DNA from: Syntrophales bacterium | GTDB taxonomy: Bacteria > Desulfobacterota > Syntrophia > Syntrophales > UBA2210 | Direction of reading: 5' to 3' | DNA length: 64,000 bases | NCBI GenBank assembly: GCA_963662405.2 | Contig: CAXXKT010000001.1 | Location: 2,528,001-2,592,000 of the forward strand | Part shown: positions 10,929-26,714 of the stretch, piece by piece | Position numbering within the stretch: the stretch's first letter is position 1 | Layout: each line of letters begins with the position of its first letter | Program-made: the position numbers and the translations under genes | Notes under the pieces: model-generated | Seen by the model: the letters and a program-made list of their open reading frames with translations, nothing else | What the model was told of the DNA's origin: nothing | Database searches by the model: none

Positions 10929-11004
10929 GGGCGGGTAGCTCAGCTGGGAGAGCGCCACGTTTACACCGTGGATGTCACAGGTTCAAGTCCTGTTCCGCCT
11001 ACCA
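10929..11004 (+). tRNA. tRNA-Val(TAC)
   Basis: Anticodon arm CCACG-TTTACAC-CGTGG; CCA end; TTGACA-17-TAGGTT promoter at 10868-10896. Confidence 0.97.
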
Positions 11005-15509: not shown

Positions 15510-15764
15510 TCAGTAGCGGTATCTAAGTTGAGCGATATGAATTGCATCTTCGGTAGCTTTACAGACGAACCTGTGTTCGTCTCTAATTCGCTTGGACCAG
15601 TAGCTGGAAAGGGCGTGCTTTAAGGACTCAGGTTTGCCGATACCTTCGAAAGGGGTGCGTTTTGTTTCCTCGATGAGGGTGTTGATGCGGCGAAGGATTG
15701 TTTTGTTGGTCTTTTGCCAGTAGAGGTAATCGTCCCAGGCGTGGTCGGAGAAGATGAGTTTCAC
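15510..15764 (-). CDS. yoeB: Txe/YoeB family toxin
   Basis: AWDDYLYWQ, PFEGIGKPESLKH, YWSKRI, LRYRY. Confidence 0.93.
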   Translation of the reverse strand: MKLIFSDHAWDDYLYWQKTNKTILRRINTLIEETKRTPFEGIGKPESLKHALSSYWSKRIRDEHRFVCKATEDAIHIAQLRYRY

Positions 15765-16012
15765 TCCATGAGATCCTTTTCGGTCCCCCGGCCGTTTTCG
15801 AGCTGGGCTATGGATTCGATCAGCCGTCTCATGTTTTCCGGTGACCGCAGCAGATAGGCCGTCTCTTCGAGGGCCTCATAGTCCTCGAGAGACATGATAA
15901 CGACCGATTCTGAGGATTTCCGCGTGACAATCACCGGGTCCAGGTCTCTGCAAACCTTCTCCATTGTTTTCGCAAGATTTTGCCTTGCTGCCGTATAGGT
16001 TATCGTTTGCAT
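15761..16012 (-). CDS. yefM: YefM/Phd antitoxin
   Basis: TYTAARQNLAKTM, LEETAYLLRSPEN; overlaps toxin start by 4 nt. Confidence 0.93.
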   Translation of the reverse strand: MQTITYTAARQNLAKTMEKVCRDLDPVIVTRKSSESVVIMSLEDYEALEETAYLLRSPENMRRLIESIAQLENGRGTEKDLME

Positions 16013-16201: not shown

Positions 16202-17878
16202 TCAGGCCCTCTGCCGTCGGAGCCGCCGGAACGTGATCCCGGCCAGCAGGCCCATGAAGACGATCATGCCCCATTCCGACAGGGTAGGGATGGACGCAGG
16301 CGCGGCAGGCAATTCACCCTCAAACGCCCCGATATCACAACGAGATCCCACCGGCCGGGCCACGCCGCGCTGGTCGGTGGCCAGACACGAGCCGGGGTTG
16401 GCCGCATCGATGGCCGGGCTGCCGGTGATCAGGGCACACGTGCGGGTAGGGCCTCCGTTGTCCTGCAGCGGGCCGAGATTCGGATCGGCGCCGGTAATAT
16501 TATTGGTCGTTGTTCCGGCAAAAGTGCAGCCGGTTGTGTCCTGAATGAGATTGTAGTCCTGCGAAGTCAATACGGCGGTATTGTAGGTGTAACAATCCGC
16601 GCCCCCGCCGCTGAGGTCGCTGTTTTGGGCGATGATCGTGTTCCCAACCTGAATAATAGTGCCCCAGTCTGATACAAAGAGTCCACCGCCGTTACCCGTA
16701 CCGTTGTTATCGCTGTCGGCCGTATTACCGGTGATGGTCACGTAATTCAGGGCCATGGTCCAATCACGGAAATAAATACCACCACCATCGGTAGCCGTAC
16801 TGTTCCCGGAGAAGGTGCTATTGGCTATGGAGGCCCCCTCGTTGATATGATAAAGGCCACCGCCACCGTTTCCATTGATCCCTGTTGCGGCGTTCCCGGA
16901 GAAGGTGCTGCCGGTGATGTTCAAAATGCCATTGCTGCTAATACCGCCGCCGCATCCATACTGGCCGGTGGCCTGGTTGCCGGAAAAGGTGCTGTCCGTC
17001 ACGATGAGCGTAACTATCCCGCCATCCGCACCGGTAGCAATGCCGCCGCCTTCATAGCCGCTGTTGCCGGCAAAGGTACTGCCGCTTACCGTGATCGTAC
17101 CATCACCGGCAAACAACCCGCCCCCGCCGTAGCCGTTGGCGCACGTATTGTTAGAACACGTGCTGTTAGTAATGCCAACAGTGCCGTAGGTTGCGATGCC
17201 GCCGCCGGCTGGCGAAGTACCGGTCGCCGTGTTTTGACTGAGGGCGCAATCGGTGATGGTGAGCTGGCCGCCGGTCGCATTGTAGATCCCACCGCCTCTG
17301 CCAACACCGGAAGAGTATGTTACGGTGTTGAGGGTGACGGTGTCGTTGTTCAGGATCAGCGTATCGCCGTTGTTGTGGATGCCGCCGCCATTTTCACCGG
17401 TGACGGCGCCGTTGCGAATAGTGACGTCAGAGATATTGACCGTAATACCGCCGGTTCCGGCAGGGTCAAGGTGAAAGATCCGGTCTATGCCGCCGCCGTC
17501 AATAATGGTGCTTCCCGCGCCGGCGCCGGCGATGGTCAGATCGCCGCCGGCCGCCAGGACGTCCAGATCGCCCGTTGCGTTGGCGTTTTCACCGGACCCG
17601 GCAACGGTCAGGGTATAGGTGCCGGCTGGTATGTTGATGGTATCGGCACCGGCGTTGGCATTGGCACTGTCAACCGCCCCGCGCAGGCTGCAATCGTTCG
17701 GAGCGGCCGTGCAGGCGGTGCACAACGGGTCGTCAGCGTTCGTGTCAACATCAAAAAATAAAGCGTAGACTGCTGTGGATGGGGTGGCGACATTCACCAG
17801 TACTGCCAGGAGCGCGGCAGCAACAACTGAACGAAACCGGGGAGTGAGATTGTGCCGGAGGGAAGCGCTTTGGCCCAT
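16202..17878 (-). CDS. Secreted CSLREA-domain / beta-helix (choice-of-anchor Q-like) protein with IPTL-CTERM sorting signal
   Basis: Signal peptide, DCSLRGAV, repeated GGGI/FSGN units, DQRG..R....CDIGAFE, C-terminal IPTLSEWGMIVF-TM-RRLRR. Confidence 0.85.
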   Translation of the reverse strand: MGQSASLRHNLTPRFRSVVAAALLAVLVNVATPSTAVYALFFDVDTNADDPLCTACTAAPNDCSLRGAVDSANANAGADTINIPAGTYTLTVAGSGENANATGDLDVLAAGGDLTIAGAGAGSTIIDGGGIDRIFHLDPAGTGGITVNISDVTIRNGAVTGENGGGIHNNGDTLILNNDTVTLNTVTYSSGVGRGGGIYNATGGQLTITDCALSQNTATGTSPAGGGIATYGTVGITNSTCSNNTCANGYGGGGLFAGDGTITVSGSTFAGNSGYEGGGIATGADGGIVTLIVTDSTFSGNQATGQYGCGGGISSNGILNITGSTFSGNAATGINGNGGGGLYHINEGASIANSTFSGNSTATDGGGIYFRDWTMALNYVTITGNTADSDNNGTGNGGGLFVSDWGTIIQVGNTIIAQNSDLSGGGADCYTYNTAVLTSQDYNLIQDTTGCTFAGTTTNNITGADPNLGPLQDNGGPTRTCALITGSPAIDAANPGSCLATDQRGVARPVGSRCDIGAFEGELPAAPASIPTLSEWGMIVFMGLLAGITFRRLRRQRA

Positions 17879-18161
17879 GCGGTATGTACCTCCTGTCAAT
17901 TATATATAATACTGAATATGTGAGATTAAGAATGTCGGTTCACTACGGGTGGTTCGGAAATAATTGATCTTTTCCCGAAAAGCAAACCTTCCGGTACGTT
18001 ACTAGGCAGCGGCTGTTAAGTCAAGAAAAACATGCCCAGGGTTGAATATTTTCTGATCCGATAGTGGGATGGGAATACCTCGGGAAATCAGGAAAACGGG
18101 GGACGCTTTCCACATTGTAGGTGGGGGAAACCGCAGTCTCCCCCATCGATGAACATGCCTG

Positions 18162-18727
18162 TTATGCCTGCACCATGGCACCGTTCCTCTTTTTTGCCTG
18201 CGCCATCACCGCGATGCCCGCGAGAGCGGCGATTACACACAGAACGATATACAAGGCGAATGCCATGTGGTAGCTCTTCGTGTAGTCATAGATCAACCCG
18301 GAGAGGGGCACGCCCACGGCGGTCCCCAGCGTCGTGAAGATGTTCAGGAAGCCGTAGATGACGGCGAAGTGCTTCTGCCCCAGGACGCGGGCGGTCATGA
18401 GCGACGGGAGGACGGTCCGGACGGCGATGGAGAAGCCGAAGAGGACGTTGAAGACAATCGCCACCCACAGGAGCTGTGAGCCGTACAGGAGGGCGATGGA
18501 GATCATCAGGCCGATCATGCAGACGAGGTAGCTCTTCAGGAGTCCCAACCGGTCGGCGTGGCCCCCCACCAGGACCTTCCCCACAATGAAGCATGGTCAT
18601 GTGCAGTGACATGAGCGTTGCCGCCAGTGTGGAGGAGAACCCTATGTCGGTGAGGTAGGGGACGATGTGGTGAAGGACACCCATGTTGGCGGTGGCGATC
18701 AGGAGGATGATGGCGGCCAAGAGCCAG
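18162..18727 (-). pseudogene. MFS transporter C-terminal remnant (frameshifted, 5'-truncated)
   Basis: Hydrophobic MFS sequence (GHADRLG, GLIYDYTKSY) split over ORFs 18286-18720 and 18162-18584 by a +1 shift near 18589; N-terminal half absent. Confidence 0.85.
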
Positions 18728-18882: not shown

Positions 18883-21800
18883 CTATAGACTCGCAAGCCT
18901 TTTGTACCCCTCGAATCTCTCTTTCGCCTCCTCTTCGGCCATCTGATAGACCTGATCGGCCACGTCGGGGAAGAGTCGTTTCAGGCTGGAGTACCGGACC
19001 TCGCCCTTGATGAATTCCTGGAAATCTCCTTTGATATCAGTCGAATCCAGCTGGAAGGGATTTTTGCCTTCCGCCCTGAGGAGCGGATTATAGCGATAGA
19101 GCGGCCAGTATCCGGCCTCGACGGCCTTTTTCTCTTCCTCCTGGCTTTTCCCCATATCGATGCCGTGGTTGATGCAGGGCGAGTAGGCGATGATCAGGGA
19201 AGGGCCGGGATAGTTTTCGGCCTCGATTGCCGCCTTCAGGAACTGCGACTTGCTCGCCCCCATCGCCACGGACGCGACATAGACGTATCCGTACACCATG
19301 GCCATGCGGCCGAGATCTTTCTTGCGGACCGGCTTCCCCTTGGCGGCGAATTTCGCGACCGCCCCCATCTGGGTCGCCTTCGATGCCTGTCCTCCCGTGT
19401 TCGAGTAGACTTCGGTATCCAGCACCAGTATGTTGAGGTCATGATTCTCGGCAATCACATGGTCCAGTCCCCCGTATCCGATGTCATACGCCCAGCCGTC
19501 GCCGCCGATGGCCCAGATCGATTTTTTGACGATCAGATCTTTCAGCCTCAGTATGTTATTCAGCGTGTCCTTCTTCGCCCCCACCGATCGCAGGATCTCG
19601 GTTGAAAGGGCCCCTTCGATCCGGAATCTCAGATCACTGGTCACATCCGGATCGTTCATATGATCGAGCCACGATTGCAACAGGCCCTTGAGTTCCGTTG
19701 AGATATTCTGCCCGACGGCCTCTCTGATATGCATGGCCAGTTTCTCACGCCTCCCTGAAATACCCGCCTCAATACCCAGGACGAACTCCGCGTTGTCTTC
19801 GAAGAGCGAATTGGCCCACGCCGGTCCGTGTCCGTACTCGTTGACGGTATAGGGACAAATCGGTGCAGAAGCACCGTAGATGGAAGAGCAGCCCGTCGCG
19901 TTGCCGATGATCATCCGGTCGCCGAAGAGCTGCGTGATGACCTTGATGTACGGGGTCTCGCCGCAACCGGGGCAGGCACCGGAGAACTCGAAAAGGGGTT
20001 GGCGAAACTGACTCCCCTTGACCGTGTGTTTCGCCATCAGATCGTTCCTGACGGGGACGGTCAGCGAGAATTGATGATTCGGCACCTGCGCCCCGCTCTG
20101 GGTGCTCAGCCGTTTCATGACGAGCGATTTTTCTTTTGAAGGGCAGACCTCCGCGCAGCTCCCGCACCCGAGACAGTCCCGGGGACTTATCTGGATCCGG
20201 AACCGGAGGCCTTTCAGCTCCTTTCCCTTGGCTTCGAGGGTTGCGAAAGATCCCGGGGCCGTTGCCAGTTCTTCCTCCGACACCAGTACCGGCCGTATGG
20301 CGGCATGGGGACAGACAAAGGCGCACTGATTGCACTGGATGCAGTGTTCCGGGATCCACTCCGGCACGTTGATCGCGACCCCGCGTTTTTCATACTGGGA
20401 GGTCGCCGTGGGAAAGATCCCGTCGGGGGGGAGGGCGCTTACCGGGACCTGTTCCCCCCGTTGCAGGGTCATGGGGAGCATGACCGAGTTGACGAATTCG
20501 GAGACATTGTCCAGGGGGTATTCGCTGCGTTGCACCCTGGCCCATGATTCGGGCACCTCGATGACCTCGATGGACCCCAGCGCCTCATCGACGGCGCGTA
20601 TGTTCATATCGACGACCTGGTCGCCTTTCTTGCAGTATGCCTTCCGGATAGCCTCTTTCAGATATCGGATGGCATCATTGGGGGGGATCACATTTGCTAT
20701 CTTGAAGAAGGCGGCCTGCATGATCATGTTGATCCGTCTGCCCAGACCGACCTTGTCCGCGATCCTGAACGCGTCGATATTGTAGAAATGCAGATGTTTC
20801 TCCGCGATGATGTTCCGCAGACCGACGGGCAGCTCCTTCTCCATCTCCTCGACCGTCCACGGGGAGTTCAGCAGGAAGCTGCCCCCCTCGACGATCCCTT
20901 CGAGGAGATCGAACTGGGTGACATACGCCGGGACATGACAGGCGATAAAGTCGGCGTGTTTGATCAGGTAGTGCGACAGGATCCGGTTCGGGGAGAAACG
21001 GAGATGGGAGACGGTGACGCCCCCGGATTTTTTGGCGTCGTACGCGAAATAGGCCTGGGTGAACATGTCGGTCTTTTCCCCGATGATCTTGATGGCCTCC
21101 GTGTTGGCGCCGACGGTTCCGTCCGAGCCGAGCCCCCAGAATTTGCACTGGGTTGTCCCGGGGGGCGAGGCGGAGAATTCCTCCCCGACTTCGAGCGACG
21201 AGTTGCTCACGTCGTCGTTGATCCCCACCGTGAAGGATCGTTTCGGCTCCCACTGATCGAGGTTTTCGTAGACCGCCTTGACCATGGCGGGGGTAAAATC
21301 CTTGCTCCCGAGGCCGTATCGTCCGCCCACGACCAGCTGCCCGAAGCCGCCCTCGTTGATGGCGGTACTGACGTCCTGATACAGGGGCTCGCCGATGGTC
21401 AGGGGGGTCTTGATCCGGTCCAGGACCGCGATCTTCTTGACCGATCTGGGGAGGACCTTGAAGAAGTGCTCCCGGGAGAAGGGGAGGTACAGTCTGACCT
21501 TGATGAGGCCTAGACGGGCCCCTCGCTCGTTGAGATAGTTGATGGTTCCCTCGACGACGTCGCAGCTTGATCCCATGGACACGATGATCTTGTCCGCCTC
21601 GGGATGACCGACGTAATCGAAGAGATGGTAGGGCCTTCCGGTCAGCTGGCTCACCTTTCGCATCTCCTCCTCGATGATCGAGGGGAGCCGTGCGAAATAG
21701 GGGGAGCATGCCTCGCGGTTTTGAAAGTAGATGTCCGAGATCTGCGATGTGCCGCGGGCCTGCGGATGTTCGGGGTTCATCGCCTTTTCTCTGAAGCGTT

Positions 21801-22401
21801 CGATGGCGTACCAGTCGATCAGCTTGGCCATATCCGGGTAGTCGATCAGCTCGACCTTCTGAACCACCATGGAGGTTCGGAAACCGTCGAAACAGTGGAC
21901 GAAGGGGAGACTGGCCTTGATGCTCGCGAGATGAGCGACGAGACCGATATCCATGACCTCCTGGGGGGAAGCCGATGAGAGCAGGGAGAATCCGGTCTGA
22001 CGGACCGCGTTGATGTCGGAATGATCGCCGAATATGCAGAGGGCGTGGCCGGCAACGGACCGTGCCGCCACATGGAAGACCGTCGGGAGCAGTTCACCTG
22101 CTATCTTGTACATCTCGGGTATCATGAGCAGAAGGCCCTGGGATGCGGTATATGTCGTGGACAGCGCCCCTGCCGCGAGTGCCCCGTGTACGGTGGCGGC
22201 CGCACCGGCCTCGGATTGCATCTCGACGATGTCGAGTACCTGACCGAAGAGGTTCTTCCTGCCGCGGGCGGCCCATTCGCTGCAGTACTCCCCGATCGTA
22301 CTCGATGGGGTAATCGGGTATAATGCCGCGACTTCACTCATCGCATACGAGACGTACGCCGCGATCTCATTTCCTTCCAGGGTCCTGTTACATCCAGCCA
22401 T
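18883..22401 (-). CDS. nifJ: Pyruvate:ferredoxin (flavodoxin) oxidoreductase, homodimeric NifJ type; possibly altered specificity
   Basis: YPITPSS, EMQSEAGAA, two CxxCxxCxxxCP, GACPGCGE, GGDGWAYDIG, YSNTGGQ. Confidence 0.93.
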   Translation of the reverse strand: MAGCNRTLEGNEIAAYVSYAMSEVAALYPITPSSTIGEYCSEWAARGRKNLFGQVLDIVEMQSEAGAAATVHGALAAGALSTTYTASQGLLLMIPEMYKIAGELLPTVFHVAARSVAGHALCIFGDHSDINAVRQTGFSLLSSASPQEVMDIGLVAHLASIKASLPFVHCFDGFRTSMVVQKVELIDYPDMAKLIDWYAIERFREKAMNPEHPQARGTSQISDIYFQNREACSPYFARLPSIIEEEMRKVSQLTGRPYHLFDYVGHPEADKIIVSMGSSCDVVEGTINYLNERGARLGLIKVRLYLPFSREHFFKVLPRSVKKIAVLDRIKTPLTIGEPLYQDVSTAINEGGFGQLVVGGRYGLGSKDFTPAMVKAVYENLDQWEPKRSFTVGINDDVSNSSLEVGEEFSASPPGTTQCKFWGLGSDGTVGANTEAIKIIGEKTDMFTQAYFAYDAKKSGGVTVSHLRFSPNRILSHYLIKHADFIACHVPAYVTQFDLLEGIVEGGSFLLNSPWTVEEMEKELPVGLRNIIAEKHLHFYNIDAFRIADKVGLGRRINMIMQAAFFKIANVIPPNDAIRYLKEAIRKAYCKKGDQVVDMNIRAVDEALGSIEVIEVPESWARVQRSEYPLDNVSEFVNSVMLPMTLQRGEQVPVSALPPDGIFPTATSQYEKRGVAINVPEWIPEHCIQCNQCAFVCPHAAIRPVLVSEEELATAPGSFATLEAKGKELKGLRFRIQISPRDCLGCGSCAEVCPSKEKSLVMKRLSTQSGAQVPNHQFSLTVPVRNDLMAKHTVKGSQFRQPLFEFSGACPGCGETPYIKVITQLFGDRMIIGNATGCSSIYGASAPICPYTVNEYGHGPAWANSLFEDNAEFVLGIEAGISGRREKLAMHIREAVGQNISTELKGLLQSWLDHMNDPDVTSDLRFRIEGALSTEILRSVGAKKDTLNNILRLKDLIVKKSIWAIGGDGWAYDIGYGGLDHVIAENHDLNILVLDTEVYSNTGGQASKATQMGAVAKFAAKGKPVRKKDLGRMAMVYGYVYVASVAMGASKSQFLKAAIEAENYPGPSLIIAYSPCINHGIDMGKSQEEEKKAVEAGYWPLYRYNPLLRAEGKNPFQLDSTDIKGDFQEFIKGEVRYSSLKRLFPDVADQVYQMAEEEAKERFEGYKRLASL

Positions 22402-22580
22402 TTTCTTTCTCCTTTTCGCCTCAACCGCAATCCAGTCAAGAACATCGTAGTCGTTATGTCGGTTACTTCAAAGAGCGCTCGCGCTGTTCGATCCGGTATC
22501 ATCAAGGAATCCTGTCCTGATCCCTTGCCTTTCACTTCTCATTTTTTTCTTTATCCACCCCACGGGGAGGTGTCCCAAAT

Positions 22581-22653
22581 AAAAAAGCCGCATACCCTCG
22601 TTCCGAGGTGCGGCTTCTCACAAAAAAGCCGCGGGGTTCAGGGCCCGCGGCTT
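22581..22653 (-). terminator. Two tandem intrinsic terminators in the nifJ leader
   Basis: Minus strand AAGCCGCGGG..CCCGCGGCTTTTTT (22622-22653) then AAGCCGCACCTCGG..CGAGGGTATGCGGCTTTTTT (22581-22616). Confidence 0.85.
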
Positions 22654-22678
22654 GGTTTCTTCATTTAGTTTGGATGAA

Positions 22679-22765
22679 TCAAGCAGCTGACCCCATAAGT
22701 ACTACGGCGAGTACGTATACACGCTTAAGAGATACCGCTACTGCTTTTCCAAACGGACCGATCAT
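22679..22765 (-). CDS. Putative Val/Leu-rich attenuator leader peptide MIGPFGKAVAVSLKRVYVLAVVLMGSAA (28 aa)
   Basis: GGAAGGA RBS upstream; 6 Val codons, all GTA, plus 3 Leu; lies between a promoter and the tandem terminators. Confidence 0.75.
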   Translation of the reverse strand: MIGPFGKAVAVSLKRVYVLAVVLMGSAA

Positions 22766-22796
22766 GTATCACTATCCTTCCGTGAAGTGTGGCGCG

Positions 22797-22824
22797 ATTT
22801 TACACGAAGCGAACATATTGTCAA
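22797..22824 (-). promoter_or_regulatory. sigma70 promoter for leader peptide/nifJ
   Basis: Minus strand TTGACA-16 bp-TAAAAT. Confidence 0.7.
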
Positions 22825-22906
22825 GGTAAAATGGAAACTATTATTGGTGAGTCAATCTTTGGTGCCGTATTTCAATTAGATACAAAGACTCTTCTTTCTT
22901 TGGCGT

Positions 22907-22923
22907 GGCCTGTCACGCCGGAG
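22907..22923 (+). repeat. 17-bp copy of the tRNA-Asp anticodon arm (att-like)
   Basis: GGCCTGTCACGCCGGAG identical to 11041-11057. Confidence 0.75.
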
Positions 22924-23103
22924 ATACCTTGAGATATGGCAATTTCTTGACAAGATTGCCATCGAGAGGGTAATGACAGCGTATATTCCGTTTGATGGGC
23001 GGCAAGAGTCTCTGAACGAGACGCCCCGTGGATATCATACGCTGATCATTTCAGCCCCTCTTCCCCGGGATGAGAACCGGAGTTTCAAGGAGTCGCTTAT
23101 CGC

Positions 23104-24654
23104 ATGCAAAGACGTAAGATATTATGGGTAATCGTCATCGTATCGGCTTTGTTCTTTTTCCTTTCAGGGACGGCGTTTGCACAGGAAAAAATGATACACC
23201 GGCACGATCTCCTCGCTCAGGCCAAGGATAAGGGGAAGGTACGGGTTATTGTCACCTTCGGGGTCGCCGGTTTGGAGACGAAGCAGCGGGCATCGCGTCT
23301 GTCACGTGTTCACCCCCCGGGGGCCAAACGCTCCTCTCCCGATCTCGACGCTTTGCGCAAGGCCGATGCGGACCTGGCCGAGACGATTCGGCGGTCATCT
23401 GCCGATCTCTTTGCGGGACTGCGGCTGGACGATGCGATCACGCATGTCTTTCAAACCGTGCCGCAGGCAGTGCTCGTCGTTGATTATGACGGCCTCCTGG
23501 CACTGGAGGACAGCCCCCGGGTGACGAGGGTGGTGGAGGACAGACTGACACCGGCCCCCGACCCTCCCTCGGTAAGCACGACCAGGAAACTTCATGCCGT
23601 AGAGAGCTATGGGGTAAACATCATCAATGCCCCCCAGGCCTGGGCAAGGGGGTATGACGGAGCGGGCTGGTATGTGGCCGTGCTGGATACCGGTGTCCGC
23701 ACGAGCCACGAGATGTTCGCGGGCAAGTATATCGTGGAGGCCTGCTTCAGTACCACATGGGGGACTTTTTCATCATCTCTCTGTCCCGGCGAGGTCCCGG
23801 AAGCGGAAGGTCCCGGTTCCGCCGTTCCGCCGGATCGGTTCGGCCACGGCACCCATGTCAGCGGCATTGCGGTCGGCAACCAGCCGGGCGGCGATCAGAA
23901 GGGCGTGGCGCCCGCGGCCGGTCTCATCGCTATCCAGGTCTTCAGCTATATCCCCAGTTGGGGTGATATCGGATCTTATTCTTCCGATCAAATCAAGGGG
24001 CTGGAATATGTGTACGGCCTCCGCGCCACATACCGTATCGCCTCGGCCAACATGAGCCTGGGAGACAGTGGTTCGCATAGTAGTTACTGCGATAGTGATG
24101 CACGGCGACCGGCTATTGAGAATCTGCGGGCGGCCGGTATCGCGGTGACCATTGCCGGTGGTAATGATGGATATTGCGGAGGAGTGAACGCCCCGGCGTG
24201 CGTCTCATCCGCCGTGGCGGTGGGGGCCTCGGACTCTTTCGACGATCCCTATTCCTGGAATAACTGGCATCCGGTGATGCAGGATATTTTCGCCCCGGGT
24301 GTGTCCATCTATTCGGCAGGCGCGTGGTCCGATACGTATTATAGTACACGGTCCGGCACGAGTATGGCAGCGCCTCACGTGGCCGGGGCCTGGGCCATCT
24401 TCCGCCAGGCCGCCCCGATCGCCACGGTCGACGAGATCGAGGAGGCCATGAAGATAAGCGGCGTCATCATCGAATCAGGCTGCGACACGGAGCCGTCATC
24501 CGGCCCCCGCCTCAACGTGTCAGCCACACTGGCTTATCTCCTGACGACGTTTCCTGTTCCCACCCTGTCCGGGTGGGGGATGATCATCTTTGCGGCACTC
24601 GTGGCCGGCGCGGCGATCGTATTCATGAGGAAAAAAGACGGTATGTCTGTTTGA
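23104..24654 (+). CDS. Secreted S8 (subtilisin-like) serine peptidase with IPTL-CTERM-like anchor
   Basis: Signal peptide; catalytic VAVLDTG, HGTHVSG, GTSMAAPHVAG; C-terminal VPTLSGWGMIIF-TM-RKK. Confidence 0.92.
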   Translation: MQRRKILWVIVIVSALFFFLSGTAFAQEKMIHRHDLLAQAKDKGKVRVIVTFGVAGLETKQRASRLSRVHPPGAKRSSPDLDALRKADADLAETIRRSSADLFAGLRLDDAITHVFQTVPQAVLVVDYDGLLALEDSPRVTRVVEDRLTPAPDPPSVSTTRKLHAVESYGVNIINAPQAWARGYDGAGWYVAVLDTGVRTSHEMFAGKYIVEACFSTTWGTFSSSLCPGEVPEAEGPGSAVPPDRFGHGTHVSGIAVGNQPGGDQKGVAPAAGLIAIQVFSYIPSWGDIGSYSSDQIKGLEYVYGLRATYRIASANMSLGDSGSHSSYCDSDARRPAIENLRAAGIAVTIAGGNDGYCGGVNAPACVSSAVAVGASDSFDDPYSWNNWHPVMQDIFAPGVSIYSAGAWSDTYYSTRSGTSMAAPHVAGAWAIFRQAAPIATVDEIEEAMKISGVIIESGCDTEPSSGPRLNVSATLAYLLTTFPVPTLSGWGMIIFAALVAGAAIVFMRKKDGMSV

Positions 24655-24833: not shown

Positions 24834-26714
24834 GTGTGCCCGGCATGGGCAGCAGCTTGGAGGTGAGAGTCCTCTACAGGTCCTGATGGTGGAAACTGTT
24901 AGCCGAGGGCAAGGGCGTCCATCGCGAGGTGGGGTCTGAAGGAAGCCGGAGGCAAAATCCCGATCCGAGGAACACGAATCGCATATCAGGCTGTATCATT
25001 GGGGCGAGCTTACGTGAGAAGGCGAAGCCCGTAGCCATCAAACGGTGATGCAGTAAATGCGGCGGATGCGGGGTGAAGGCGGCTGTTCTTACCCGGGGAG
25101 GTCTGGGAACCTGTCGGAGACGACAAGGGGTTTCGCAAGGGACTCTGAACGGTTTCCAGAAGTCAGCAGAGGCCGTATTAGGTGTGGCGCAAGCCGGGCT
25201 GAAGGGCCGAACGTGTGGTCGGTGGTGAGACTCAAGGATTCGTGGTCGTGGAGATGCGGCAACTTTCATTATTCGATGAAGGCCTTCTGTCATGTTTGAA
25301 GGGTGAAGCCCCGAGGAGAGATGGGAGGAGGTATCAAGCGGCGGCGGCATTGGAGAGATCCGAACCCATCATGGTTGACCTGATGCAGGAGGTAGTGAAC
25401 AGGGAGAACGTGATTCGCGCATGGAAACGAGTCAGGGCGAACAAGGGGAGCCCCGGCATTGACGGGATGACCGTCGATGAACTGACGGATTACCTGCGGG
25501 AACACTGGCCGCGGATTCGGGAGGAGTTGTTGACAGGGGAGTATCGCCCCCAACTGGTGAAAGAAGTAGTGATTCCGAAGCCGGGAGGCGGGACCAGACG
25601 GCTTGGTATCCCCACGGTGACGGATCGATTTATCCAGCAGGCAATTTTGCAGGTGCTCGATCCCCTGTATGATCCGACCTTTTCGGACTACAGTTATGGC
25701 TTTCGTCCTCGTCGCCGTGCTCATCAGGCGGTGAACCGAGCGAAGAGATGCATATCTGAAGGATACGAATGGGTGGTCGATATTGACCTGGAGAAGTTTT
25801 TTGACCGGGTGAACCATGACATCCTCATGGGGAGACTGGCCAAGAGGATCGGTGACAAGCGCATTCTCCGGGTTATTCGTCGGTATGTGCAGGCCGGGAT
25901 CATGGTCAATGGGGCCGTACAGGAAAGGTGGGAAGGGACGCCGCAGGGCGGACCCTTATCGCCGCTGCTGGGCAACATTCTTCTGGACGCACTGGACAAG
26001 GAGTTGGAACGGAGGGGTCACCGATTCTGCCGGTATGCGGACGATGTGAACATCTATGTCAAGTCTCAGCGCGCCGGGAAGAGGGTGTTTGAATCCATTG
26101 AGGCATTTTTGCTCAAGCGGTTGAAGCTTCGGGTGAACCGGGACAAGAGTGCGGTAGCCCGATACCATGAGCGGGGATTCTTAGGATTCGGCTTTACCTC
26201 CGGGAAACTCCTCAAGATCAAGCTGACGGGCAAGGCCCTGAGGAACTTCCGGGACCGAGTCCGGGCGATCACGAGGCGATCTCGGCGCGTCTCCATCAAC
26301 CGGATAATCGAGGAACTCCAGACGTATTTGAGAGGATGGATCGGGTATTTTCATCTGATCGAGACGTGGACGATTCTGCGGGATCTGGATAGTTGGATGC
26401 GCAGGAGGTTGCGGTGTTTCATGGTCAAACAATGGGTAAACAACTGCCATACCCGTTATAAGAACCTGATCCATCTGGGAGTAGGGAAAGATCAGGCGCG
26501 TATCGCGGCAGGGTCAAGCAAAGGACCTTGGGCGTTGTCCAACATGAAACCGCTGAAGATTGCTTTGTCCAATCGGTTTTTTGCCGAACGGGGTTTTCTT
26601 GGACTCTGGGGTCAGGCTCAAACATTGGGCAAGACTACATGAACCGCCGTGTACGGACCCGTATGCCCGGTGGTGTGGGAGGGCGAAGGCCGTGAGGCCT
26701 TCCCCTATCCCGAT
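24834..26714 (+). mobile_element. Group II intron, class IIC
   Basis: 5' GTGTGCCCGGCATGGG; short domain V GAACCGCCGTGTACGGACCCGTATGCCCGGTGGT; domain VI ending CCTATCCCGAT; inserted just after a hairpin (24805-24825). Confidence 0.92.
25371..26642 (+). CDS. ltrA: Group II intron reverse transcriptase/maturase (no endonuclease domain)
   Basis: PGIDG, RRLGIPTVTDR, GTPQGGPLSPLL, YADD, X domain; start uncertain (frame open from 25215). Confidence 0.93.
   Translation: MVDLMQEVVNRENVIRAWKRVRANKGSPGIDGMTVDELTDYLREHWPRIREELLTGEYRPQLVKEVVIPKPGGGTRRLGIPTVTDRFIQQAILQVLDPLYDPTFSDYSYGFRPRRRAHQAVNRAKRCISEGYEWVVDIDLEKFFDRVNHDILMGRLAKRIGDKRILRVIRRYVQAGIMVNGAVQERWEGTPQGGPLSPLLGNILLDALDKELERRGHRFCRYADDVNIYVKSQRAGKRVFESIEAFLLKRLKLRVNRDKSAVARYHERGFLGFGFTSGKLLKIKLTGKALRNFRDRVRAITRRSRRVSINRIIEELQTYLRGWIGYFHLIETWTILRDLDSWMRRRLRCFMVKQWVNNCHTRYKNLIHLGVGKDQARIAAGSSKGPWALSNMKPLKIALSNRFFAERGFLGLWGQAQTLGKTT

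Follow-up and report, generated by a model that had tools for sequence, protein, structure and literature searches.

Ribosome-mediated transcription attenuation of the ilv/leu/thr type is classically represented by the leaders ilvL, ivbL, and leuL of Escherichia coli. A functional precedent for the control of 2-oxoacid:ferredoxin oxidoreductases by an amino acid signal comes from T-box surveys, in which por/vor operons of Clostridia are T-box-controlled. A classical-type attenuator is also described for ilvBNC of Corynebacterium (PMC11857589, PMC10272879), and the literature on classical ilv/leu attenuators further includes PMC5794164 and PMC6123439. Actinobacterial ilvB leaders have the anatomy of attenuators, and changes of the control codons in the ilvB leader of Streptomyces coelicolor were without effect, according to PMC1262725; attenuator anatomy therefore does not prove function. 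A literature search that left most subscription journals outside its range found no report of an attenuator on a nifJ or PFOR gene and nothing on T-box-controlled oxidoreductases.

The window analysed here is a stretch of 64,000 nucleotides from a Syntrophales genome, in which a candidate valine attenuator precedes a gene for a single-chain pyruvate:ferredoxin oxidoreductase, nifJ. Taken as a whole, it is likely that a duplicated ilvBN leader, gained once and kept by selection, serves as a valine attenuator that induces NifJ, probably for pyruvate supply. This reading is built on sequence, homology, distribution, conservation, and covariation, and reaches from there to translation, switching, and the direction of the enzyme.

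The promoter, ribosome-binding site, 28-codon uORF, two terminators, and nifJ all lie on the minus strand where the first-pass annotation had placed them. The σ70-type promoter TTGACA-16-TAAAAT (22797..22824) has a homologous counterpart in the ilvBN leader, and its −35 box is identical and equally spaced in 18 of 18 leaders compared. It is the sole promoter-like site between 22300 and 23200, where 0.9 are expected by chance, so that by itself it is not significant. The Shine-Dalgarno motif GGAAGGA (22775..22781, assigned from sequence) lies 9 nt 5' of the ATG of the uORF (22679..22765), which closes with a conserved G-[TS]-A-A end. As in classical attenuators, a uORF with Shine-Dalgarno motif and start codon, presumably translated, is thus situated between promoter and terminator. 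The 5' strand of the antiterminator (22680..22694) is made up of the uORF's last five codons and runs into the stop codon; the 3' strand (22640..22654) is at the same time the 5' arm of terminator 1. This first intrinsic terminator (22622..22653) consists of a 10-bp stem (22653-22626) and a run of six U (22627-22622); the sequence of its 3' arm (22632-22626) complements that of the 5' arm (22616-22610) of terminator 2 (22581..22616), which has a stem at 22616-22585 and six U reaching to 22581. A non-conserved spacer of 179 nt (22402..22580) separates terminator 2 from the nifJ start, and a promoter scan of this spacer found no second promoter 3' of the terminators. The leader has no Rfam match at the gathering threshold, and identity as a T-box or riboswitch was dropped, as no Rfam family reached that threshold in the leader. 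An assembly artefact was likewise rejected: two contigs span 21800-23300 unbroken and with zero differences (from one sample, which may be the source sample), and the arrangement of leader and nifJ has independent backing from genomes G001 and G003.

The nifJ gene (18883..22401, minus strand) encodes 1172 amino acids and matches the equivalog TIGR02176 with 1784 bits at a cut-off of 911. Its first description as a NifJ paralog holds for its identity as nifJ and fails for strict paralogy, as the host genome has 10 POR_N-domain loci in total but no other single-chain PFOR. The closest named relatives of the protein are 81-86% identical and come from records labelled Syntrophaceae, Syntrophales, or Deltaproteobacteria. 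Since nifJ is followed by a hairpin and then by an unrelated broken MFS gene, it is likely monocistronic. That MFS-transporter gene (18162-18720, minus strand) is truncated and frameshifted. Further genes of the surroundings are a choice-of-anchor Q repeat protein (16202-17899, minus strand) and an S8 peptidase (23104-24654, plus strand), both IPTL-CTERM proteins that flank the nifJ region, a toxin-antitoxin pair (15510-16012, minus strand) that we take to be YefM/YoeB-like, and a group II intron (24918-26642, plus strand; Rfam D1-D4 matches) with a reverse transcriptase ORF at 25215-26642.

The leader of nifJ belongs to a family. A BLASTN search with it gave matches in 35 of 61 genomes, including a second site in the host genome (C1:1338453-1338588) that lies 5' of the genes for the large and small subunits of acetolactate synthase (ilvBN). 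The two host copies are 79% identical (E 1.8e-25), and homology between the nifJ leader and the Syntrophales ilvB leader extends from the −35 box through terminator 2. A search was made with model R1, built from an alignment of 37 of 38 candidate leaders (L045 was left out as a misfit to the extraction pattern). It scores 140 bits for the window copy, which is in the training set, 165 bits for the host ilvB copy, and 39 bits for the next match. Among 38 genomes of the host's family, R1 finds 32 matches above 130 bits, followed by a gap down to 53 bits; at E up to 1e-9 the leader has a match in 120 of 151 Syntrophales genomes. In a class-level sample, 125 of 151 genomes have a match, and the sample, where listed, is itself composed of genomes from that order. 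Matches beyond the order are weak, with at most 63 bits, and precede ilvB, leuA, trp, aro, and aminotransferase-like genes. The downstream gene is ilvB in 36 of 37 loci inspected, the remaining one being a PLP aminotransferase-like gene in genome G089. Pattern matches in metagenomes (n = 70) comprise 62 before ilvB, one before nifJ, three at contig ends, and four by chance; the single nifJ match equals the leader of G001 over the stretch compared and was not counted as independent. Because of the second copy in the host, the spread of the family, and the predominance of ilvB downstream, the window leader is regarded as a paralog of the order-wide ilvB leader. Judged by sequence, the nifJ leader is a duplicate of the ilvBN promoter together with its leader.

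The locus in G089 (C2:10289-10465, minus strand; L186) is a separate second copy of a Val-type leader, scoring 87.6 bits, in another family of the order; the PLP class I aminotransferase-like gene behind it possibly encodes a Val transaminase. The Syntrophales ilvB leader family may have been described before, for instance in the 2004 survey of proteobacterial attenuators by Vitreschak or in later comparative work on attenuators from the Lyubetsky group. A literature search for ilvB attenuators of Syntrophus or other deltaproteobacteria, outside which most subscription journals fall, found no description, and a term search of the main text of PMC2965389 gave nothing on Syntrophus, pyruvate, or ilvB.

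The codon content of the uORF is as first claimed, with six Val codons, all of them GTA (codons 9, 11, 16, 18, 21, and 22), and three Leu codons. Among the Val codons of the host genome, counted over 1593 long ORFs, GTA is the rarest with a share of 11.7%, and the probability of at least six GTA in 27 codons is ~8e-8, uncorrected for the fact that the uORF was picked by eye. In all 37 aligned homologues the reading frame is intact and the last 12 codons before Gly contain four to eight Val. The three known nifJ leaders all retain an open uORF with start and stop and have six to nine Val codons, mostly GTA. Their Leu codons in the last 12 before Gly number 3, 2, and 0, against 5, 4, and 4 Leu codons in the ilvB leaders of the same genomes, and Ile control codons are absent from this stretch in all three. 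Where the first-pass annotation proposed sensing of branched-chain amino acids, the codons point to the nifJ leader as mainly a Val sensor. The tRNA-Val(TAC) gene at 10929, to which the GTA codons had been related, is real and is the only TAC tRNA gene of the genome. Its proximity to the leader carries no weight because the GTA bias is family-wide, and the idea of a functional link between leader and tRNA gene was abandoned for want of evidence. The Ile-rich leaders of the host genome precede ilvBHCD and cimA-leuA, and the Val type is found on nifJ and on the small ilvBN operon. These Ile-rich leaders (C1:2177240-2177400 and C3:185298-185450, both plus strand; the second before cimA-leuA-leuCD) have a single terminator, and of the host's two operons for acetolactate synthase, which are 46% identical, one appears to sense Ile and the other Val.

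The antiterminator is the part of the original proposal that had to be replaced. A pairing of 22694-22687 with the loop and 3' arm of terminator 1 (22641-22633) had been suggested; the complementarity exists in the window, but the pairing is not conserved (60.7% paired in 37 homologues) and is no better than in shuffles (65/500). It was rejected on this ground and also for its weakness in the window, where the isolated helix has −9.2 compared with −17.8 kcal/mol for a different pairing, in which the uORF end (22694-22680) binds terminator 1 at its 5' arm (22654-22640). The latter is 89.6% paired across the 37 leaders, and four of its pairs have changed on both sides, one of them being CG in 18 leaders and UA in 18; one such pair is specific to the window and G001, and kinship of the sequences inflates counts of this kind. 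The terminators themselves are paired in 98.6% of cells, with 19 compensatory cells in the 37 leaders. In the window, the conserved antiterminator has −17.8 and terminator 1 −19.5 kcal/mol.

Alternative structures were folded with transcripts ending before the 3' arm of terminator 1 and with the ribosome represented by a mask to 12 nt past the start of the A-site. With a stall four codons before Gly, the probability of the antiterminator in these shortened transcripts exceeds 0.9 in every one of the 37 leaders. In the window it holds for stalls up to the codon before Gly and is gone for later ones, a loss that follows from the construction of the mask. When the whole 5' leader is left free to fold, the probability is 1.00 for stalls at Val9, Val16, Val18, and Val21 and 0.13 at Val22, and it is also 1.00 without any ribosome; a protector hairpin is thus not decisive in the model. 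This hairpin is present in a short transcript and in the full minimum-free-energy structure, and is outcompeted by the antiterminator once the 5' arm of the terminator emerges. The full-length equilibrium favours the terminators in two of the nifJ leaders: both terminators versus antitermination amount to −44.1 versus −40.3 kcal/mol in the host (G000) and −47.9 versus −37.1 kcal/mol in G001. The third nifJ leader, in G003, is near balance, and the mean of the 37 leaders favours antitermination, so that two of three nifJ leaders are shifted towards 'off'. Since equilibrium favours both terminators in G000 and G001, the switch is predicted to be kinetic.

In the mechanism envisaged, a ribosome supplied with enough Val-tRNA would reach the last codons or the stop codon and cover 22694-22680; terminator 1 would then fold, with terminator 2 as backup, and transcription would stop. 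When Val-tRNA is scarce, the ribosome would stall on the GTA codons and leave 22694-22680 free to form a helix with terminator 1's 5' arm while the 3' arm is yet to be transcribed. A cluster of control codons, a conserved terminator with U-run, and an exclusive antiterminator predicted to be ribosome-gated, which are features of a classical attenuator, are found here computationally. The proposal of a ribosome-sensing attenuator of the branched-chain amino acid type on nifJ is supported by conservation, by selection, and by the presence of the leader on 3 of 20 nifJ loci of the order, and the nifJ leader is very probably a functional Val-responsive transcription attenuator.

The two terminators may be coupled. 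Across the 37 leaders, pairing between the 3' arm of terminator 1 and the 5' arm of terminator 2 is possible throughout (100% paired). The layout recurs in weaker-scoring tandem-terminator leaders of trp, aro, Phe, leuA, and ilvB types, of which 26 of 29 were parsed: all five core cross-pairs are present in 23 of these 26 (shuffled mean 19.1, p 0.0006), a p-value that ignores relatedness, with one row probably mis-parsed. Antitermination at terminator 1 would orphan its 3' arm, which would pair with the 5' arm of terminator 2, and a single stall would clear both terminators. We infer such a relay, in which antitermination at the first terminator frees the arm that blocks the second. The cross-helix could also be a relic of the descent of both hairpins from one duplicated hairpin; five of its seven pairs are invariant and none has changed on both sides in alignment A1, whose sequences are related. 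In a literature search for 'tandem terminators' the phrase was not met among the matches listed.

nifJ is an accessory gene in the order, found in 20 of 339 Syntrophales genomes (E up to 1e-150). A search of the regions upstream of these orthologs, the check proposed in the first-pass annotation, recovered the Val-rich uORF plus terminators at three of the 20 loci with R1, namely in G000, G001, and G003, which are three species of one genus. Only these three species have it before nifJ, and the other 17 loci are without it, L151 having only 240 nt upstream. No full R1 match was obtained on 80 other, distant nifJ loci, several of them with short upstream DNA, and the query used matched no nifJ in the other five genomes of this genus. 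In a quick tree of 30 rows, the three leader-bearing NifJ proteins group together as a clade (SH-aLRT 99) with leaderless orthologs as sister, and the three nifJ leaders form a clade (95) inside a cluster of ilvB leaders from the genera g1 and g10 (18 rows, ~250 nt). As proteins and leaders each form a clade, a single gain is concluded, and on the two trees one duplication of promoter plus leader, once, in one Syntrophales genus, accounts for both clades. In four genomes of the family (loci L050, L051, L055, and L056), from two NifJ clades, nifJ lies directly behind a tRNA-Asn-like gene, possibly an ancestral site or an insertion hotspot.

The gain has been followed by long retention. The three NifJ proteins are 86-89% identical, and fourfold-degenerate sites differ by 54-59% (JC about 1.0-1.15), which is near saturation. 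Over this synonymous distance the terminator block has remained 80-86% and the uORF end 71-75% identical among the three loci, compared with flanks (5' of the −35 box and 3' of terminator 2) at 0.45-0.51 against a shuffle level of 0.46-0.47; the genes neighbouring nifJ differ among the three genomes. The uORF, whose conservation had been named as a point to check, is thus kept with the leader on nifJ in three species, and by this comparison the nifJ leader is maintained by selection. These data also bear on the possibility that a moved nifJ merely captured the ilvB 5' region for its promoter and that the leader is a fixed damper with little response to valine. The promoter did come along with the leader, close nifJ orthologs lie in other contexts, some of them behind tRNA-Asn, the leaders of G000 and G001 favour termination by 4 and 11 kcal/mol, and the branches of the nifJ leaders measure 0.12-0.39 against mostly 0.04-0.14, with one of 0.23, for ilvB leaders of the same cluster. 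A damper, however, needs no uORF, yet start, frame, six to nine Val codons, stop, and antiterminator pairing have all been kept, which makes promoter capture improbable.

With a selected Val attenuator as the preferred reading, the sign of control has consequences for the enzyme. The carbon of Val, Leu, and Ile derives largely from pyruvate, and Val and Leu consume two pyruvates each; the three amino acids make up 23.5% of the residues in the long ORFs of the host. NifJ would run as a pyruvate synthase from acetyl-CoA, CO2, and reduced ferredoxin, as a top-up to the multi-subunit enzymes. A reductive direction is inferred from the regulatory logic alone, because pyruvate oxidation under valine shortage would be counter-productive. 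Two Val-triggered boosters would then act at the entry of the pathway, nifJ supplying pyruvate and ilvBN its condensation. Val-tRNA charging might instead be a proxy for carbon or energy shortage, with NifJ induced for pyruvate oxidation or for ferredoxin balancing. PFORs are reversible, and the genome encodes a pyruvate kinase (motif match), but oxidation would presumably drain the precursor of valine just when valine is short, and the sister copy of the leader controls the first enzyme of valine synthesis; such a proxy role is very unlikely.

A different product has also been considered. The attenuator could work as described while NifJ carboxylates other acyl-CoAs for branched-chain amino acids, isobutyryl-CoA to 2-oxoisovalerate for Val and propionyl-CoA to 2-oxobutyrate for Ile. 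Anaerobes are known to carboxylate branched acyl-CoAs reductively, which counts for this idea; a Val-specific signal would suit a Val-specific product, Leu codons have been lost from the nifJ leaders in comparison with the ilvB leaders in the same genomes, and a Phe-rich leader on an ABC transporter/acyl-CoA ligase operon may mark a parallel salvage route. The alignment speaks for pyruvate as the substrate, as T31, R114, L121, I123, I841, and N1001, which we take to be the substrate-pocket residues, are the same as in solved PFORs, presumably of the Moorella and Desulfovibrio types, and in leaderless orthologs. The pocket of NifJ would accordingly be an ordinary one for pyruvate, and in none of the three genomes is nifJ linked to a transporter or CoA ligase. 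The propionyl-CoA/Ile role was discarded, given that Ile control codons are missing and that the host has citramalate synthase (cimA) and an IlvA-like gene (motif match), which cover 2-oxobutyrate. Carboxylation of other acyl-CoAs is on these grounds unlikely, and its combination with the relay, a two-terminator attenuator above a NifJ that makes the valine precursor straight from isobutyryl-CoA and bypasses the ilv pathway, is slightly less likely again.

Further leaders with tandem terminators occur in the host. A conserved Phe-rich leader peptide (C1:2712775-2712945, plus strand; L140, with L227-L233, L235, L238, and L239 of the same type) precedes an ABC transporter operon that also contains two acyl-CoA-ligase-like genes; under Phe control, this operon may take up and activate an aromatic acid, for example phenylacetate. 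The same layout is present in the Trp-rich leaders of trpE and trpB2 and in the aromatic-rich leader of a DAHP synthase operon (C1:2089100, C1:784560, and C1:2126981), and similar leaders are found in other families of the phylum.

Valine-dependent induction of NifJ for pyruvate synthesis, the reading favoured here, would carry leader-peptide attenuation beyond operons committed to biosynthesis, to an enzyme that is central, reversible, and CO2-exchanging, and the sign of control would predict the direction of NifJ in vivo, pyruvate synthesis. It would also be a clean and datable case of regulatory rewiring, in which an accessory gene received a copy of a promoter-attenuator module of ~250 bp; leaderless sister genes serve as controls, and the G089 aminotransferase is a second, separate recruitment. 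Beyond nifJ, the analysis reveals an ilvB attenuator that is order-wide, and a layout of tandem terminators that leaders of the trp, aro, and Phe types have in common across the phylum and by which one stalled ribosome may clear two terminators.

The mechanism class itself is textbook, and what appears new is a Val attenuator transplanted onto a PFOR in three species. The nifJ leader resembles the classical ilv/leu/thr attenuators in its short uORF rich in branched-chain amino acid codons and in an antiterminator that the 3' end of this uORF overlaps and that forms in competition with a GC-rich terminator followed by a U-run. It differs from them in its target, which is a central carbon, CO2-exchanging enzyme and not a gene committed to biosynthesis, and in having two cross-pairing tandem terminators, no Rfam family, and no Ile control codons. 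Compared with the Syntrophales ilvB leader, it has nifJ downstream, fewer Leu codons, and, in two of three copies, more favoured termination. The protein matches the PFOR/NifJ structures PDB 6CIN, 1B0P, and 7PLM over its full length (E 0), with the pocket residues kept. The clostridial T-box por/vor operons would share with the nifJ locus an amino-acid-sensing RNA over an oxoacid:ferredoxin oxidoreductase and a role in the supply of branched-chain amino acids. In the clostridial case, uncharged tRNA is sensed directly and the enzymes are multi-subunit and thought to carboxylate branched acyl-CoAs, whereas on nifJ a leader peptide would control a single-chain pyruvate enzyme.
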